Shown in pieces: positions 89-12,632 of a stretch of DNA of 64,000 nt (position 1 is the stretch's first letter; every line of letters starts with the position of its first letter). This DNA is from a virus. The translations under genes and the position numbers were made by a program. The notes beneath the pieces are model-generated. The model ran no database searches. It saw only the letters and a program-made list of their open reading frames with translations, and had not been told where the DNA came from. The DNA lies in IMG/VR virus record IMGVR_UViG_3300021960_009431. One strand, written 5' to 3'.

Positions 89-2473
89 ATGAAAAAAGCA
101 GTAATCGCCTGGGGTCGTATGAACCCCGTGACATCAGGTCACGAAAAATTAGTTAATAAAGTGAAATCTGTGGCTAGGCGAGAGCGCGGTGAACCTCAGA
201 TTTATCTTTCCCATACACAAAATGCTAAAAAAGATCCATTGCAATATAAAGATAAGATTGCAATGACTAAGAAAGCATTTGGTTCAGTAATGAAGCAATC
301 TGCTTCACGAACACTTATCCAATTAATGCAAGAATTACAGAAAGCTGGTTTTACCGAAATAACAATGGTGGCCGGTTCTGATCGTGTGTCTGAATATAAT
401 ACATTATTAAATAAATATAATGGTAAAGATTATACGTTCGATAAAATAAAAGTAATATCAGCTGGAGAAAGAGATCCTGACGCAGAAGGTGCAGTAGGAA
501 TGTCTGCTACTAAGCTGAGAAAAGCTGCAACAGATGGTAAGTTTGATGATTATACTGATGACCGTGGAAAAAAACAATTAGGTTTCAAATCAGGTCTTCC
601 TAAAGAATTACAAGGCGCTGATGCTAAAAGACTATACAAACTTGTAAGGAAGGGCTTACTAGTGGAAGAAATAGAAAGTATATTAGAAGAAGAATTAGAA
701 GACTTTACTGACATAGAGTTAGAAGAGTTTGTTAATGAAGTTGAAGACTGGGAAGAGCTAGATGAAGAGTATATTGAAGAGCGTGCTCCTTTAACTTTAC
801 AACAACGAATCAAAAAAGCAAGAATAATGAAACGTCTTGCTCCAAAATTAAAACGTCAGCGTCAGATTAAAAAGTTTAGAATGGCTCCTACTGAACGTTT
901 AGTACAACGTGCACGTAAGTTAGCTCGTAATCTTCTTCGCAAAAAGATGGCAGGTAAAAGAGGTGAAAACTATAATAAGTTATCAGCTTCTCAAAAAATA
1001 CAGGTTGATCAACTTATACAAAAGAAAGCTTCTTCAGTAGAGCGTATTGCAAAACGTTTACTACCTATGGTACGTAAAAAAGAAATTGAACGAATCAGAT
1101 CTGCTCATGGTTCTAAAAATGAAAATGTAGAAGTACTTCAAGCAGCTTTTGATTACTTTACAGAAGCAGCAAAAACACCTCAAGATTCTGATATTGCTGA
1201 CCGCAAAGGTACTCAACCTAAAAGATATCATTCTGGTTTATCTAAATCAACTAAAGCAGCTAGAGACGCACACTTTAAAAAAGGTGCAAAGATGGATGAC
1301 AATAATCCAGCTGCGTATAAACCAGCACCTGGGGATGCAACTGCTAAAACTAAACCATCTAAGTATACTAAAAAATATAAAGAACTCTTTGGAGAGCAAG
1401 ACGCATTAGATCGTACTCAAGAAAGAATTAAAAGAGAAAAAGAAACTAATAAACGTAGACACGATCGTCAGTTAGACAGAGCTCGTTCTCAAGATGCAAG
1501 AGCAGATGTTCGTAAAGCATCTCAAGATAACAAAGGTGTAAGCTCTTCTGTTTCTGAAGCATATGAGTTAACTGAAAAGTCTATGGATGCTCTTAAAAAT
1601 AAAGCAGCAAAGTCTGGTGTATCATATGGTACTTTAAAGAAGGTATATGATAGAGGTGTTGCAGCATGGCGTACTGGTCATAGACCTGGCACTACACCTC
1701 AGCAATGGGGATATGCTAGAGTAAACGCTTTTATTACTAAAAAGAAAGCCGGTAACTTAAACCATGATAAAGACTTAGCTAATGAGTATGTACCTGAAGA
1801 AAGAAAAGGTAAACAACTTGTACATCATGGAGAGACAACTAAAAACTTTGATATATGTCCTTCAGCTTTAAAAGCTTTCGATGATAATCAGAAAGCAGGT
1901 ATGAGTGATAAAGATGGTTTTCATGATGCAGTTGTAGCTGTTGATAAGTATCTAGGTTTTGAAAAATCTTTAACTCAAAAAGGAAGTGCATCAGAAGCAG
2001 ATATGGCCCGTATGAAAGCTATGGTTGATATTGCTAAACAAAAAATATCTGATGCTAGTCTTCCCGGTCATGATTATCATCAAACTCATTTAGACGCTGT
2101 TAAAGAACTAATGAAAGAAATGAATGAAGGTGATGGTTTATGGGCTAATATACATAAAAAGAGACGTGAAGGAAGAAAGCCTAGAAAAGCTTTCTCAAAA
2201 GGAGCTCCTACAAAACAAGATTTTAAAAATGCATCAGAGAATTTTCAAGATGGAAAAAATCCTCAAGACAAAGGTGACGCAGGCCGACATGGTTTAAAAG
2301 GTAAGACCAAAGCTCAATTAAAAAAGATTCGCTCATCAAGCACTGCTTCTAAAAGAAAAAAACAATTAGCTCACTGGATGATTAATATGCATCATAACGA
2401 AGAGCACGGAGCTGGTGAAGATGGTACAAATAAACTTACTAAAAAATATAAAAAGGACACACCGGGGCAATGA
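89..2473 (+). CDS. Cytidyltransferase-like (HxGH nucleotidyltransferase) domain fused to long multi-module charged region; putative internal head polyprotein
   Basis: N-term GRMNPVTSGH, VAGSDR, SAGERD, MSATKLR as in conserved T4-like cytidyltransferase; acidic linker, then basic modules incl. GHRPGTTPQQWGYARV (DUF5824-like); ATG 89 follows AAGGA. Confidence 0.75.
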   Translation: MKKAVIAWGRMNPVTSGHEKLVNKVKSVARRERGEPQIYLSHTQNAKKDPLQYKDKIAMTKKAFGSVMKQSASRTLIQLMQELQKAGFTEITMVAGSDRVSEYNTLLNKYNGKDYTFDKIKVISAGERDPDAEGAVGMSATKLRKAATDGKFDDYTDDRGKKQLGFKSGLPKELQGADAKRLYKLVRKGLLVEEIESILEEELEDFTDIELEEFVNEVEDWEELDEEYIEERAPLTLQQRIKKARIMKRLAPKLKRQRQIKKFRMAPTERLVQRARKLARNLLRKKMAGKRGENYNKLSASQKIQVDQLIQKKASSVERIAKRLLPMVRKKEIERIRSAHGSKNENVEVLQAAFDYFTEAAKTPQDSDIADRKGTQPKRYHSGLSKSTKAARDAHFKKGAKMDDNNPAAYKPAPGDATAKTKPSKYTKKYKELFGEQDALDRTQERIKREKETNKRRHDRQLDRARSQDARADVRKASQDNKGVSSSVSEAYELTEKSMDALKNKAAKSGVSYGTLKKVYDRGVAAWRTGHRPGTTPQQWGYARVNAFITKKKAGNLNHDKDLANEYVPEERKGKQLVHHGETTKNFDICPSALKAFDDNQKAGMSDKDGFHDAVVAVDKYLGFEKSLTQKGSASEADMARMKAMVDIAKQKISDASLPGHDYHQTHLDAVKELMKEMNEGDGLWANIHKKRREGRKPRKAFSKGAPTKQDFKNASENFQDGKNPQDKGDAGRHGLKGKTKAQLKKIRSSSTASKRKKQLAHWMINMHHNEEHGAGEDGTNKLTKKYKKDTPGQ

Positions 2474-2754
2474 AAACATTTAAACAATATTTCGCTGCCG
2501 AAGATATGTCTGGCATGTCTGTAAAATCTGGTCATAAAAGATCAGTTAAACAGGGCGCTGGTATGACTAAGAAAGGTGTCGCTGCATATAGAAGACGTAA
2601 CCCAGGTAGTAAGTTACAAACAGCTGTAACAACTAAACCTAGCAAATTAAAACCTGGAAGTAAAGCTGCTGGAAGACGAAAATCCTTTTGCGCTCGTTCA
2701 AAAGGCTGGACTGGAGAGCGAGGGAAAGCGGCTCGAAGAAGATGGAATTGTTAA
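2470..2754 (+). CDS. Small basic protein with capsid-targeting-like N-terminus (putative internal protein)
   Basis: MKTFKQYFAAE resembles T4 IP CTS MKTYQEFIAE; conserved RRKSFCAR...RWNC motif. Confidence 0.65.
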   Translation: MKTFKQYFAAEDMSGMSVKSGHKRSVKQGAGMTKKGVAAYRRRNPGSKLQTAVTTKPSKLKPGSKAAGRRKSFCARSKGWTGERGKAARRRWNC

Positions 2755-2767
2755 ATAGGAGAGTAAA

Positions 2768-4561
2768 ATGTCATTAGAAAGAACTATACGCGGCGTGTTG
2801 ACAGAACAAACAGCGCCAAAAGAAATCACTGAAGCAGGTCATGATGATGTATCTATGGCTAAAACTAAAGTAAAAATAGCTATGGCTGCAGTTCAAAAAA
2901 TGAGCGCCGAGTTAGATAAACTACCAGACGATGGTGATTTACCTTCATGGTGGGTAGGTAAAGTAGCTATTGCTGTAGATAAGCTAGACGGTATGGCTGA
3001 TTATCTTGATACTCAAGTAGAAGAGGTGCAAGAAGAAACTCTTCCCGGTAAAGGAAAAGACACCTGGATGAAAGATGGTGTTGAAATGTGTCCGGAAGAA
3101 TGTTGTGGGCAACCAGTAACAGAGTGTAAGTGCGGTACTGATTGTAAAACATGCAATTGTGCTGAAAGAAAAGAAATGATGAAAGCTGAAGCTACTATTC
3201 CTGATGGTCAAACTGCAATGACTAAGAAACCTGAGATTTCTAAAAGCGATAAAGATAAAATTGCTAAAATTGCTGATATGATGAGTAAAGAAAAGAAACC
3301 TAAAACTGAAGCATACAAAGAACCTCAAGGTCAAGCTAAGAGTATGATGTCTCCATTACACAAAGCTCGTATGGATAAAGAGAAAGCTGATCGTGATAGA
3401 GATGGAAAGCTTAAACCAGGTGTAGTTAAAGTTAAAAAAGAAGAAGTAGAGGTAGAAGAAGCTAAAAAAGTAAGCAGTATGCAAATTCATAAAGTGCTTG
3501 CTCCTACTAAAAATTCTCGCGAGGGTATTGCTGCTCTTAAAAAAGCATTTCGTGTGAATGATAGAGAAGCACAAATGATGATGAAGAAAGTTATGAACGA
3601 AGAAAGTCTCGATGAAATTTCTCGTACCATGACTCCTATGCGTAAGAAATTTGGCGGAACAGTTGATCCTAAAAAGTTTGATATGTATAAAAAGCATATT
3701 AAACAACATAGAGTAGATGAGCCTACAGTTCGTATGGTTATCGATAATCCAGATGATGCTGAATCAAAACGTATGATGAAAAATAAACATGTTGCTCAAG
3801 CTGTAAGTCTACGTAAAGCTGCTATGAAAGAATCAGTTGCTGGTAAAATTAGAAATGCTATGATGAAAAATGAAAAATTTGCCAACGCAGCTCAGCAAGC
3901 TGCTGTAATGGCTAAATTAAAAGCATCTGGTAAATATAAAAAAGAAGAAGTTCAAGAAGCTAAGAAGCCAGATGAAACTGTTAACATTCGTCAATCATTG
4001 AAAAAAGCTATCGATATGAGAGGGCAGAAAGAAGTTGTCTTTAAAGACGGTTCTAAAGCTAAAATCTCTGTACAAGATGCTGAAAAAGCAATGAAGATGC
4101 TTGATACTACAAGAATGGCGAAAGCTAAACAAGACCTTACTGTACGTATGATGAAGAGTCATCAAGACTTTAAAGATACACTTGCAGGTAAAAAACCTAA
4201 AGTAGATCCATTTGCTCTTAGAGTGAGAAAAGAAGACAACAATCCTAAAATTGTAAAACATTTAGAGATGGCTAAAAAAGCACGTGCTGAAGGTGATTAT
4301 GATAAAGCTAATTATCATACACAATTAGCGAGACAAATGCAAAGCGAAAATACTTTTATTTCTAAATTTAAAGAAGAGATAAAAGAAAAGAAACGTATGA
4401 GTGAGACTAAAGGAGCTCCTAAAGGTTATCACTTTACAAGATCTGGTCAACTTAAAAAAGGTGATGCAGGTCAAGATGGAGATGGAGGAAAAATGTTAAG
4501 ATCTGATCCATTAGATAAACAGAGAAAAAAGATTCCTCCACTACCTGAAAACGATAAATAA
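2768..4561 (+). CDS. Lys/Glu-rich multi-module protein, putative internal virion polyprotein
   Basis: GGAG RBS; modules separated by Glu-rich junctions; DLPSWWVGKV module and 8-Cys segment. Confidence 0.6.
   Translation: MSLERTIRGVLTEQTAPKEITEAGHDDVSMAKTKVKIAMAAVQKMSAELDKLPDDGDLPSWWVGKVAIAVDKLDGMADYLDTQVEEVQEETLPGKGKDTWMKDGVEMCPEECCGQPVTECKCGTDCKTCNCAERKEMMKAEATIPDGQTAMTKKPEISKSDKDKIAKIADMMSKEKKPKTEAYKEPQGQAKSMMSPLHKARMDKEKADRDRDGKLKPGVVKVKKEEVEVEEAKKVSSMQIHKVLAPTKNSREGIAALKKAFRVNDREAQMMMKKVMNEESLDEISRTMTPMRKKFGGTVDPKKFDMYKKHIKQHRVDEPTVRMVIDNPDDAESKRMMKNKHVAQAVSLRKAAMKESVAGKIRNAMMKNEKFANAAQQAAVMAKLKASGKYKKEEVQEAKKPDETVNIRQSLKKAIDMRGQKEVVFKDGSKAKISVQDAEKAMKMLDTTRMAKAKQDLTVRMMKSHQDFKDTLAGKKPKVDPFALRVRKEDNNPKIVKHLEMAKKARAEGDYDKANYHTQLARQMQSENTFISKFKEEIKEKKRMSETKGAPKGYHFTRSGQLKKGDAGQDGDGGKMLRSDPLDKQRKKIPPLPENDK
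4554..4560 (+). promoter_or_regulatory. Late promoter-like ATAAATA
   Basis: ATAAATA 30 nt upstream of AGGAG/ATG 4590. Confidence 0.45.
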
Positions 4562-4589
4562 CAGTAAAGAACCTAATAGGAGAATTAAA

Positions 4590-5105
4590 ATGGCAAATAT
4601 ATTTGGTAGTCATGGGTTGACAGACAGCTTATTAGACGCTGTTAGAGATGTACAATCAAAAAGCGATGGTGTATCTAAGCATGCTGCTTTTGGCTATGTA
4701 ACAGAAAAGAAAAAAATGGACCCTGTCGGTGATGCAGATGCAGATATCGACAATGATGGTGATGTAGATAAGTCAGATAAGTATCTACATAATCGTCGTA
4801 AAGCTGTTAAGAAAGCTATGGGTGGAAAAAAAGATGAAGTAGATGTCAATCCTAAAGATGACAATGTAAAAGAAGGTATAGACTCAGGGCTAGAAAATCC
4901 TCATAACTGTGCTACTCACGTTTACTCAGAGCAATGGGGTGACGGTACACCTGTTAAAACAATGCACGCAGATCCAGATGAAGCTGGAAATATTGCTTGG
5001 TATGATGTCATGTTCGAACATGGAATTGAGATGCGTGTTCCTATTGAGGAATTAAAAGTAATTAAATCGAGTCATCACGGCCATAAAAAGAGAGGAATGA
5101 AGTAA
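4590..5105 (+). CDS. Conserved T4-like phage protein with DxDxDG acidic loop (putative virion protein)
   Basis: DPVGDADADIDNDGDVDKSDKYLHNRRKA motif typical of marine T4-like phages. Confidence 0.6.
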   Translation: MANIFGSHGLTDSLLDAVRDVQSKSDGVSKHAAFGYVTEKKKMDPVGDADADIDNDGDVDKSDKYLHNRRKAVKKAMGGKKDEVDVNPKDDNVKEGIDSGLENPHNCATHVYSEQWGDGTPVKTMHADPDEAGNIAWYDVMFEHGIEMRVPIEELKVIKSSHHGHKKRGMK

Positions 5106-6431: not shown

Positions 6432-6968
6432 ATGGCTCAAGCAGTAGACTTATATGTACTTTATAGAATTATAAAAGACATTAGTACTCCGTTTAAAGAT
6501 ACTGATGCATATAAGCTTGGACTAGTCGACGAAAAAGGTAAAAGAAAAAAGAAAGCTTCTTCTTCAGAAGAGAAGAAAGCTACTGGCTATTATACAAGAT
6601 TTGTATTTAATATTAAAAGAGCATTAGGTAAAGTCGGTCTTGATAATAAAATTGGTACAGCTGCAGGTGCTCTTTTTCTATTTAAAGAATCACATACAGG
6701 TAAAGAATATTCACAAGAAGACATCATATTAGGTATTGAAGAAGAAGTGCAATACTTAGATGAGGTTACTATGAAGACATATTCTGAATTTTTTAGAGAA
6801 GATGCTCCAGCAATGTCAACAGGTGCTGCTGTAGCAGGTACAGGAGATGATCCTGTTCACTGGAAGAAAATGGGTCGACCTAGAGTAAAAGGCAAGGCTA
6901 TAAATGGAATTGCTTATCTAAAAAGGATGAATAAACAGCGTAGCGCTAATACTGCTATAAGGAGATAA
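6432..6968 (+). CDS. Conserved T4-like hypothetical protein with internal CTS-like start at 6771
   Basis: TPFKDTDAYKLGLVDEKG motif; internal GAGG + ATG giving MKTYSEFFRE. Confidence 0.65.
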   Translation: MAQAVDLYVLYRIIKDISTPFKDTDAYKLGLVDEKGKRKKKASSSEEKKATGYYTRFVFNIKRALGKVGLDNKIGTAAGALFLFKESHTGKEYSQEDIILGIEEEVQYLDEVTMKTYSEFFREDAPAMSTGAAVAGTGDDPVHWKKMGRPRVKGKAINGIAYLKRMNKQRSANTAIRR

Positions 6969-11599: not shown

Positions 11600-11630
11600 C
11601 AACGTGTAGCGTTTGATGAATGGATTTATT

Positions 11631-12632
11631 ATGTCTGAATATATTGATGTTAAGTATATAAATTTACTCTCTCCCCGTCTAGATAGATATAAGATAAAGA
11701 ATAGCAGTCCTTTTACTGCTAACTTTAGATGTCCTGTGTGCGGTGATTCTAAAAAGAATAGACATAAAGCTAGAGGATATGTATTCTCTCGTAAAGGTGG
11801 TTTATTCTATAAATGTCATAATTGTGGTATGGGAACCTCTCTTGGCAATCTTATGAAAGAAATAGATCCTACTTTGTACAACCAGTATGTGATGGAAAGA
11901 TATAAAGAAGGTAATGTAAGACAGTCTCATGCTAACGTTACTACAGTAATGGATTTTGTACCTGAGTTTAAAAAGAAAAATCTTTTAGACGAGTTGCTTG
12001 ACCCGGTAAAAGGTAGTCCTGCTGAAGATTATTTACGCAATCGTATGATACCTGAATCATGCTGGAAAGATTTATATTATATAGATAATATAGAGAAAAT
12101 AGAACAACTGTCTGAGAAATATAAAGACCGTATTATTGGCAATGAGTCTCGCTTGGTCTTACCGTTTTTAGATAGAAGTGGTAAGTTAGTAGGTGTTACA
12201 TGTAGAGCATTGGGAGACGAAAGGCTCCGCTATGTTACCGTTAGGGTAAACGATGATCTTCCCATGATATATGGTCTAGATAAAGTAGATATAACTAAAG
12301 ATATATACGTTACAGAAGGTCCTATTGATAGTTTATTTTTAAATAATGCTGTAGCTGTAGGTAATACAGATTTAAAGCAAGTAAGTAATAACTTGCCTTT
12401 TGAACGATTAGTCTTTATATTTGATAATCAGCCTAGAAATATTGAATTAGTAAAGATAATGGAACGTGCTGCTGAGAGCGGAGCTCGTATGGTAGTATGG
12501 CCAGAAAATATTTTAGAAAAAGATATAAATGATATGATTCTTAAAGGAATAAACGTAGAAGAAGTTATAAGTACTACTACCTTCTGCGGCCTAGAATTGA
12601 AGTTGAAATTAACGAAATGGAAAAAAGTATAA
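11631..12632 (+). CDS. gp61: DNA primase (T4 gp61 family)
   Basis: Zn finger NFRCPVCGDS...YKCHNCG; TOPRIM VTEGPIDSLF, FDNQPRN, KDINDM. Confidence 0.93.
   Translation: MSEYIDVKYINLLSPRLDRYKIKNSSPFTANFRCPVCGDSKKNRHKARGYVFSRKGGLFYKCHNCGMGTSLGNLMKEIDPTLYNQYVMERYKEGNVRQSHANVTTVMDFVPEFKKKNLLDELLDPVKGSPAEDYLRNRMIPESCWKDLYYIDNIEKIEQLSEKYKDRIIGNESRLVLPFLDRSGKLVGVTCRALGDERLRYVTVRVNDDLPMIYGLDKVDITKDIYVTEGPIDSLFLNNAVAVGNTDLKQVSNNLPFERLVFIFDNQPRNIELVKIMERAAESGARMVVWPENILEKDINDMILKGINVEEVISTTTFCGLELKLKLTKWKKV

Follow-up and report, generated by a model that had tools for sequence, protein, structure and literature searches.

Genes and modules of the locus

Positions 89 to 5,105 of the IMG/VR virus record IMGVR_UViG_3300021960_009431 carry a group of genes whose products consist of small modules joined end to end, and which may supply protein cargo to the phage head. 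The window referred to below is the whole 64,000-nucleotide (64-kb) stretch that was analysed. The window belongs to a pelagimyophage, a T4-like phage of the marine bacterium SAR11. Among cultured phages, Pelagibacter phage HTVC008M is its closest relative; HTVC008M is T4-like and falls within the Kyanoviridae, a family that includes the abundant T4-like phages of SAR11 and marine cyanobacteria. Its gene order is that of HTVC008M from gp130 onward, with the primase gene at 11616-12632, and no head genes lie within the 64 kb. The locus has helicase and primase genes on either side, an arrangement shared with cyanomyoviruses: equivalent blocks, gp182-gp186 in Syn9 and ORF89-ORF93 in S-SCSM1, are found between the genes for the gp41 helicase and the gp61 primase.

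An original prediction, made from the sequence of this stretch, described three open reading frames (ORFs) of 794, 597 and 171 amino acids (aa) behind a late-promoter box as encapsidated polyproteins, built from shuffled modules that are joined at glutamates resembling prohead-protease sites. The coordinates of the three ORFs and the position of the box are correct; the count is not, as a fourth ORF of 94 aa is present at 2470-2754. The four genes (ORFs 89, 2470, 2768 and 4590) are tightly packed and all lie on the + strand. The features of the locus are:

51-58, +: TATAAATA, a T4-type late-promoter-like box, 30 nucleotides (nt) before ATG 89
62-87, +: small conserved hairpin that contains the ORF 89 Shine-Dalgarno sequence and lies after the late-promoter box and before ATG 89
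89-2473, +: ORF 89, 794 aa, a predicted nucleotidyltransferase followed by six more modules; candidate cut sites (residue numbers) after E194, E231, E359, E436, (E496), E570 and E680
89-670, +: module 1 of ORF 89, residues 1-194, predicted HxGH nucleotidyltransferase with a NadD/PPAT-like fold, ending at E194
671-1165, +: acidic linker (residues 195-231) and very basic helical module (residues 232-359, net charge +27)
1166-1798, +: conserved modules, residues 360-436 (ending Phe-Gly-Glu) and residues 437-570 (with DUF5824)
1799-2470, +: clade-specific added modules, residues 571-680 and 681-794
2470-2754, +: ORF 2470, 94 aa, overlapping the ORF 89 stop by 4 nt
2768-4561, +: ORF 2768, 597 aa, about 11 small modules, mostly helical
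2831, 3035, 3188, 3308, 3458, 3614, 3872, 3956, 4232, (4373) and 4403, +: junction Glu codons of ORF 2768
4590-5105, +: ORF 4590, 171 aa, a leader-like N-terminus to E39, then two modules: a DxDxDG-type acidic module and, after E95, a His/Cys-containing module

All 13 junction glutamates named in the prediction are present in the sequence. Its description of the modules as small and mostly very basic fits most of the proposed pieces, which have a pI of 9-11.6, and fails for the 194-aa folded enzyme of ORF 89, the three N-terminal pieces of ORF 2768 and the whole of ORF 4590, all of them acidic. Each polypeptide combines several unrelated domains in a late/packaging gene context, as polyvalent proteins do, and no peptidase family was found in any of the ORFs with Pfam or PHROGs.

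Module 1 of ORF 89 is, judged by its motifs and predicted fold, an HxGH nucleotidyltransferase of the NadD/PPAT/cytidylyltransferase superfamily. It strongly matches phrog_395/3041, PHROG families labelled 'cytidyltransferase', and scores 17.8 bits against Pfam CTP_transf_like, below the cut-off of 21. A sequence search against the PDB gave no match, and it was the fold search alone that identified the enzyme: the AlphaFold model of the module, in which the per-residue confidence (pLDDT) is 85-93 and falls at residue 194, matches NadD and CoaD (PPAT) with a Foldseek probability of 1.00. The motif Thr-Ser-Gly-His occupies residues 15-18, with G17 and H18 invariant among ORF 89 orthologues, and Ser-Ala-Thr-Lys-Leu-Arg lies near residue 140. 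At the end of the module, E194 is invariant in 25 orthologues (42-88% identity) while the surrounding residues vary.

Further along ORF 89, the hydrophobic-x-Glu motif at residue 231 is kept within the subfamily having the basic module 232-359, and 22 of 27 orthologues retain [FY]-[GD]-E at residue 436 despite changes in the sequence that follows. DUF5824 was recognised at residues 468-562 (69.4 bits against a Pfam cut-off of 25). The proposed junction LTE|K (E496) falls inside this match; it is the weakest on the predicted list. HTVC008M-type phages have a protein that stops at the counterpart of the residue-570 boundary, and only the part of ORF 89 beyond that residue is clade-specific. The last module (681-794) begins Gly-Asp-Gly-Leu-Trp after E680; in four unrelated contexts it comes after a Glu, and in HTVC008M it forms a gene of its own, gp128.

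ORF 2768 gave no Pfam, PHROG or PDB match and no tblastn match to phage records, and a Foldseek search with its AlphaFold model returned nothing below E 0.4. Its N-terminus carries a hydrophobic heptad ending at E13, a Glu that is not conserved in the related contigs L002-L004. ORF 4590 matches Syn9 gp185 (1.3e-18) and the S-SCSM1 virion protein ORF92 (3.4e-11). Syn9 gp185 (L088; Syn9 150885-152474) is annotated 'cytidyltransferase', yet it lacks that domain: it opens with the two-module unit of ORF 4590 and continues with low-complexity stretches rich in Ala/Lys and in Ser.

ORF 2470 encodes an 11-residue leader that ends in Glu and resembles the capsid-targeting sequence (CTS) of T4, followed by a basic DUF6321 module (residues 29-83, 37.8 bits against a Pfam cut-off of 28.5). 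This module is very common in ocean metagenomes and is carried by at least 7864 longer proteins. Among the best 120 of these it is C-terminal, and the residue before it is Glu in all 33 distinct upstream contexts, with a hydrophobic residue two positions before that Glu (position P3) in 32 of the 33. Abundant 288-aa proteins have the enzyme fused directly to a complete internal leader and the DUF6321 module, and enzyme polyproteins of 825-875 aa carry the module at their end. ORFs 89 and 2470 are therefore the split version of a gene that these relatives have fused, and the division falls exactly at the leader.

Shuffled modules and glutamate at their joints

Comparison with 80 related viral contigs revealed that the modules are real and mobile: they are reordered, dropped or found as stand-alone genes, in agreement with the predicted shuffling. 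In L004 the pieces of ORF 2768 follow one another in another order, and the first module of this ORF is a stand-alone gene of 81-89 aa in L021, L044, L048 and L068. The 642 database relatives of ORF 2768 mostly cover 8-77% of the protein; for most of them the shared part amounts to just 8-30% of it, and identity there is often 75-90%. ORF 4590 modules turn up at differing places within proteins of 188-982 aa.

Counts of the hydrophobic-x-Glu motif exceed those in shuffled sequences by 22 to 13.2+-3.1 in ORF 89, 16 to 12.1+-2.8 in ORF 2768 and 5 to 2.6+-1.4 in ORF 4590; the excess is not significant for the last two. With raw counts this near to chance the motif alone proves nothing, and its positions were therefore used as evidence instead. 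A set of 720 non-redundant proteins from these loci yielded 2318 internal homology breakpoints. A hydrophobic-x-Glu is no more than one residue away from 405 of them, compared with 174.7+-12.6 for random positions, although these counts are inflated by shared ancestry and the breakpoints are not independent events. The same test run on other residues gave ratios of 0.97 for Asp and 0.71 for Lys. Within ORF 2768, 10 of the 17 peaks of homology start points coincide with a Glu, among them the five tallest (E141, E181, E369, E536 and E546).

The ends of shared segments bear the same mark. For segments whose start or end falls within both proteins, Glu-Glu accounts for 23.6% of the identical pairs in the first aligned column and for 31.7% in the last, versus 5.2% in segment interiors, so that shared segments start or end on Glu 4.6-6.1 times more often than expected. 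Asp and Lys at segment ends are at or below expectation despite equal or higher match scores, and outside the locus Glu was found at just 1 of 33 segment ends. P3 is hydrophobic at 62% of module ends and at 43% of sites with non-homologous upstream sequence, against a background of 30.5%, and the positions neighbouring P3 have no hydrophobic excess. The original prediction named as a refuting outcome that module boundaries in homologues would miss the Glu junctions; the result favours the prediction, as seen in the breakpoints, the segment ends, the P3 enrichment, the DUF6321 contexts and the leaders mapped onto joints (below).

Leaders, head protease and candidate capsid cargo

Leaders were compared with those of T4 IPII and IPIII, read from NC_000866. 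A T4-CTS-like leader stands at the N-terminus of 58 distinct proteins of these loci, compared with 6 of 1369 control ORFs, and the best copies share 7 of 10 residues with the T4 CTS, whose first 10 residues suffice for capsid loading (PMC9026906). In the window, ORF 2470 has such a leader, ORF 2768 has it in part, the leader-like N-terminus of ORF 4590 may be one and ORF 89 lacks it. Modules behind a leader of this type do occur alone in related contigs. Some modules follow a leader in one protein and lie in the interior of a longer protein elsewhere; in 24 of 49 such cases, compared with 3.8+-1.9 expected, the Glu ending the leader corresponds to an internal hydrophobic-x-Glu, which makes leader end and joint equivalent.

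The leader carriers include DUF6267 proteins, Zeta/AAA_33-type kinases, PAP2 phosphatase and ParB_N-like proteins. Examples just upstream of the cytidylyltransferase gene in related loci are a 408-aa DUF6267 protein (L002:119-1345), a Zeta-toxin/AAA_33-type P-loop kinase (L037:5155-5832), a PAP2 phosphatase (L080:5728-6363) and a ParB_N-like protein (L010:3002-3436), each with a leader. The DNA of this phage upstream of the window probably holds such leader-bearing enzyme genes as well.

A candidate protease for these joints is encoded by relatives: HTVC008M has a gp21 homologue, gp088, and Peptidase_S77 is present on 4 of 5 long related contigs. The T4 capsid protein matures at Leu-Thr-Glu, with Ala next, and alignment places Leu-x-Glu at this site in HTVC008M and two relatives, which makes a Glu-specific rule with hydrophobic P3 plausible for this lineage. 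The predicted structures resemble beads on a string. The AlphaFold models of ORFs 2768 and 89 (predicted template modelling scores, pTM, of 0.25 and 0.34) consist of confident small helical units with low-confidence stretches between them. Segments with pLDDT below 50 make up 35% of ORF 2768 and contain 10 of its 10 joints; in ORF 89 they make up 29% and contain 6 of 7. The overall figure of 16 of 17 joints is not independent of the homology evidence, since low pLDDT partly reflects changes in alignment depth.

Homologues of these proteins have been reported from virions. Mass spectrometry marked S-SCSM1 ORF89, 90, 91 (NMNAT-like), 92, 93, 95 and 97 as virion proteins (PMC9602691); of these, ORF91 matches the ORF 89 enzyme (E 1.7e-36) and begins with a leader, and ORF95 matches the next window gene, at 5105. 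The S-CREM2 cytidylyltransferase was detected in virions (PMC10665884), as was the cyanophage-core 'cytitidyltransferase' T4-GC190 in S-SM1 particles (PMC3037559). Peptide-level proteomics data were not found in the supplement of PMC9602691, nor did we find a publication on a CTS or on cargo polyproteins in either cyanophages or pelagiphages. The virion homologues of ORF 89 and ORF 4590 in cyanophages lend indirect support to encapsidation in this phage.

We therefore propose, as the somewhat better than even reading, that the locus encodes capsid cargo (internal protein) polyproteins whose modules are separated by prohead-protease sites. The gene products would be strings of small modules independent of one another, made up of one nucleotidyltransferase, a large number of basic helical peptides and a few that are acidic. 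The chains would enter the prohead with the scaffold core, loaded via T4-CTS-like leaders where these are present, as at the N-terminus of ORF 2470. A prohead protease of the gp21 type (Peptidase S77) would then cut after Glu at the hydrophobic-x-Glu joints, and the pieces would remain in the head with the DNA. Because the protease would separate the modules in any case, fusing, splitting or reordering genes at the joints would cost little, which would explain the rampant shuffling. The idea may extend, more tentatively and at rather less than even likelihood, to the helicase-primase locus across the Kyanoviridae as a plug-in system, in which any module with hydrophobic-x-Glu flanks and a CTS-like leader, even an internal one, would be loaded and then released by the head protease. 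Fusion, fission and reordering would be nearly neutral in such a system, and the phage would deliver, together with its DNA, a combinatorial set of basic peptides and of enzymes (NadD/PPAT-like transferase, Zeta-like kinase, PAP2 phosphatase and ParB-like protein).

The predicted encapsidated polyproteins are supported in part, by the shuffling, the Glu-coincident boundaries and the stand-alone leader-bearing copies; several observations weigh on the other side. The ORF 89 of the window clade has no leader and starts directly with the enzyme fold, while its relatives in other clades have four different N-terminal extensions. Shuffling does not extend to residues 1-565 of ORF 89, which keep one module order in all relatives, from pelagiphages to Syn9, and the two modules of ORF 4590 keep theirs over the same range; this conserved order hints at single proteins, or that not every joint is cut, and some such module pairs may act as one protein. 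ORF 2768 has no homologue among the virion proteomes compared. The hydrophobic-P3 rule is obeyed by about half of the joints (exceptions in ORF 2768 are KAE, KTE and KNE), the shared ancestry of breakpoints tempers their count, and Glu is moderately raised over about +-8 residues around them, so that Glu-rich flexible or helical linkers could yield part of the signal. At internal sites, enrichment of the complete leader-like heptad is weak (132 vs 90), and the window ORFs contain 3 such hits, one of which falls within the enzyme fold; the idea of a full internal CTS at every joint was therefore rejected. The three virion studies (PMC9602691, PMC10665884 and PMC3037559) report presence only and no cleavage sites, and the S-SCSM1 authors allow for carry-over of abundant proteins (PMC9602691). 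The analysis shows the modularity, the shuffling, the joint signature, the leader-joint equivalence and the protease in relatives, and the literature adds virion detection of cyanophage homologues; the loading of these proteins, the cuts, the number of pieces released, delivery into the host and the role of the pieces are inferred.

Those linkers are the core of the strongest alternative, an unlikely though not negligible one: multi-domain virion or head-internal proteins that stay whole, or lose their N-terminal leader only, and whose joints are Glu-rich flexible linkers tolerating recombination. Raw motif counts near chance, the spread of Glu over some +-8 residues instead of a single position, recurrent acidic linkers such as Lys-Lys-Glu-Glu-Val-Glu and the fixed module order in ORF 89 (residues 1-565) and ORF 4590 would all suit such proteins. 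Linkers of this kind do not readily account for joints at which Asp has no excess and Lys is depleted, or for a hydrophobic enrichment that is specific to P3 even where the upstream sequence is non-homologous. Nor would whole proteins explain why the Glu ending a removable T4-like leader is the Glu of internal joints, or why genes split exactly at joint sites.

It is much less probable that these are late cytoplasmic proteins that are never packaged, serving for example in nucleotide metabolism with DNA-binding peptides, and that the shared N-terminal motif has another purpose. The missing leader of ORF 89 would fit, as would the possibility of contaminated virion preparations admitted in PMC9602691, and the virion data come from other phages. 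Such proteins would nevertheless not be expected in four independent cyanophage virion proteomes, nor in a syntenic block of which S-SCSM1 ORF89-93, ORF95 and ORF97 are all marked as virion proteins, nor behind leaders sharing 7 of 10 residues with an experimentally defined T4 CTS (PMC9026906). Least probable of all, and only barely credible, is release of the modules by internal translation starts or by a different protease: an in-frame Met and full leader do occur at some joints (ORF 6432-6968 and the 288-aa enzyme-DUF6321 fusions), but most joints lack a Met or ribosome-binding site, Pfam found no peptidase domain in the ORFs and the joint signature fits the S77 rule.

As cargo polyproteins, the products of this locus would extend the known T4 CTS/gp21 system, the new element being interchangeable cargo modules strung behind or around leaders and cut by the head protease in trans. 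In T4 itself a short address tag directs a small number of single proteins into the head, and some of these disarm host defences. Like T4 IPI, IPII, IPIII and Alt, a number of proteins of these loci have an N-terminal leader of about 10 residues ending in Glu, and relatives of this phage encode an S77 prohead protease, which would be Glu-specific as in T4; like the T4 internal proteins, they would be basic, highly variable cargo in a plastic locus under late control. Each T4 internal protein is a single cargo cut once, whereas the proteins of these loci string together several candidate cargo modules at joints resembling cut sites, leaders are found at internal positions too and the first ORF has none. 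Multi-site cutting at x-x-Glu by a gp21-type protease, with the fragments kept in the head, is known for T4 gp22, gp67 and gp68 and for the inner-body and ejection proteins of phiKZ, 201phi2-1 and SPN3US (PMC5694885, PMC9026906), and would take place here as well. The T4 core and giant-phage proteins are, however, fixed structural or ejection proteins with propeptides, whereas the window proteins are mosaics of interchangeable modules; the giant phages also prefer Ala/Ser/Gly at P3 and use an S80 protease, in contrast to the hydrophobic P3 and the S77 protease proposed here.

Polyvalent proteins (Iyer et al. 2017, PMC5512222) likewise join many unrelated effector domains in one late polypeptide, with proposed co-delivery with the DNA and processing, and they share Zeta-like kinase and ParB-like modules with this locus in relatives of the phage. 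They carry their own metallopeptidase (MPTase-type) acting in cis, whereas no peptidase domain was found here and the head protease would act in trans at a defined joint motif. A further counterpart is the cyanophage core virion protein T4-GC190 (Syn9 gp184, S-SCSM1 ORF91; 'cytidylyltransferase' or NMNAT-like), which has been detected experimentally in virions, has a homologous enzyme domain (38-39% identity) and occupies the equivalent genomic position. The cyanophage proteins combine a leader, an N-terminal extension of about 100 aa and an SH3-like tail with that domain, whereas the window protein has no leader and six other modules.

If the modules are indeed cargo released by the head protease, this would explain why the cargo locus between helicase and primase is so variable. 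It would also give a function to thousands of highly abundant ocean proteins that lack annotation; the DUF6321 module by itself is present in more than 7800 longer ones. The reading predicts exact cut sites that can be checked in existing virion mass-spectrometry data, and it would provide a natural design rule for multi-cargo loading of T4-type capsids.

Probable late control and a neighbouring gene

The locus is probably transcribed late, from the TATAAATA box. Copies of this box number 3 in the 64-kb window compared with 14.8 expected, a scarcity that fits a functional late promoter avoided elsewhere. The box lies within 91 nt upstream of 13 of 28 ORF 89 orthologues. Only 1 of 35 leader-bearing ORFs is preceded by it, and these ORFs therefore seem to be co-transcribed and not individually promoted.

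The hairpin at 62-87 is present in 12 related loci. Its outer stem has compensatory changes between clades and its inner pair covaries; the folding energies are weak. RNAalifold, applied to the 5' untranslated region, recovered the inner pair alone, the outer stem being missed because it is shifted by an indel. The hairpin may be a translational operator or a 5' end element of the late cargo mRNA. TTG 62 was considered as an alternative start that would give ORF 89 a leader, and was rejected because L002 does not preserve the reading frame and ATG 89 is the start served by the Shine-Dalgarno sequence.

Beyond the block at 89-5105, ORF 6432-6968 (178 aa) contains midway, at 6771-6800, an in-frame Met and a nearly perfect T4-CTS-like leader ending in Glu. 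From its sequence, this gene looks like another fused leader-plus-cargo unit.

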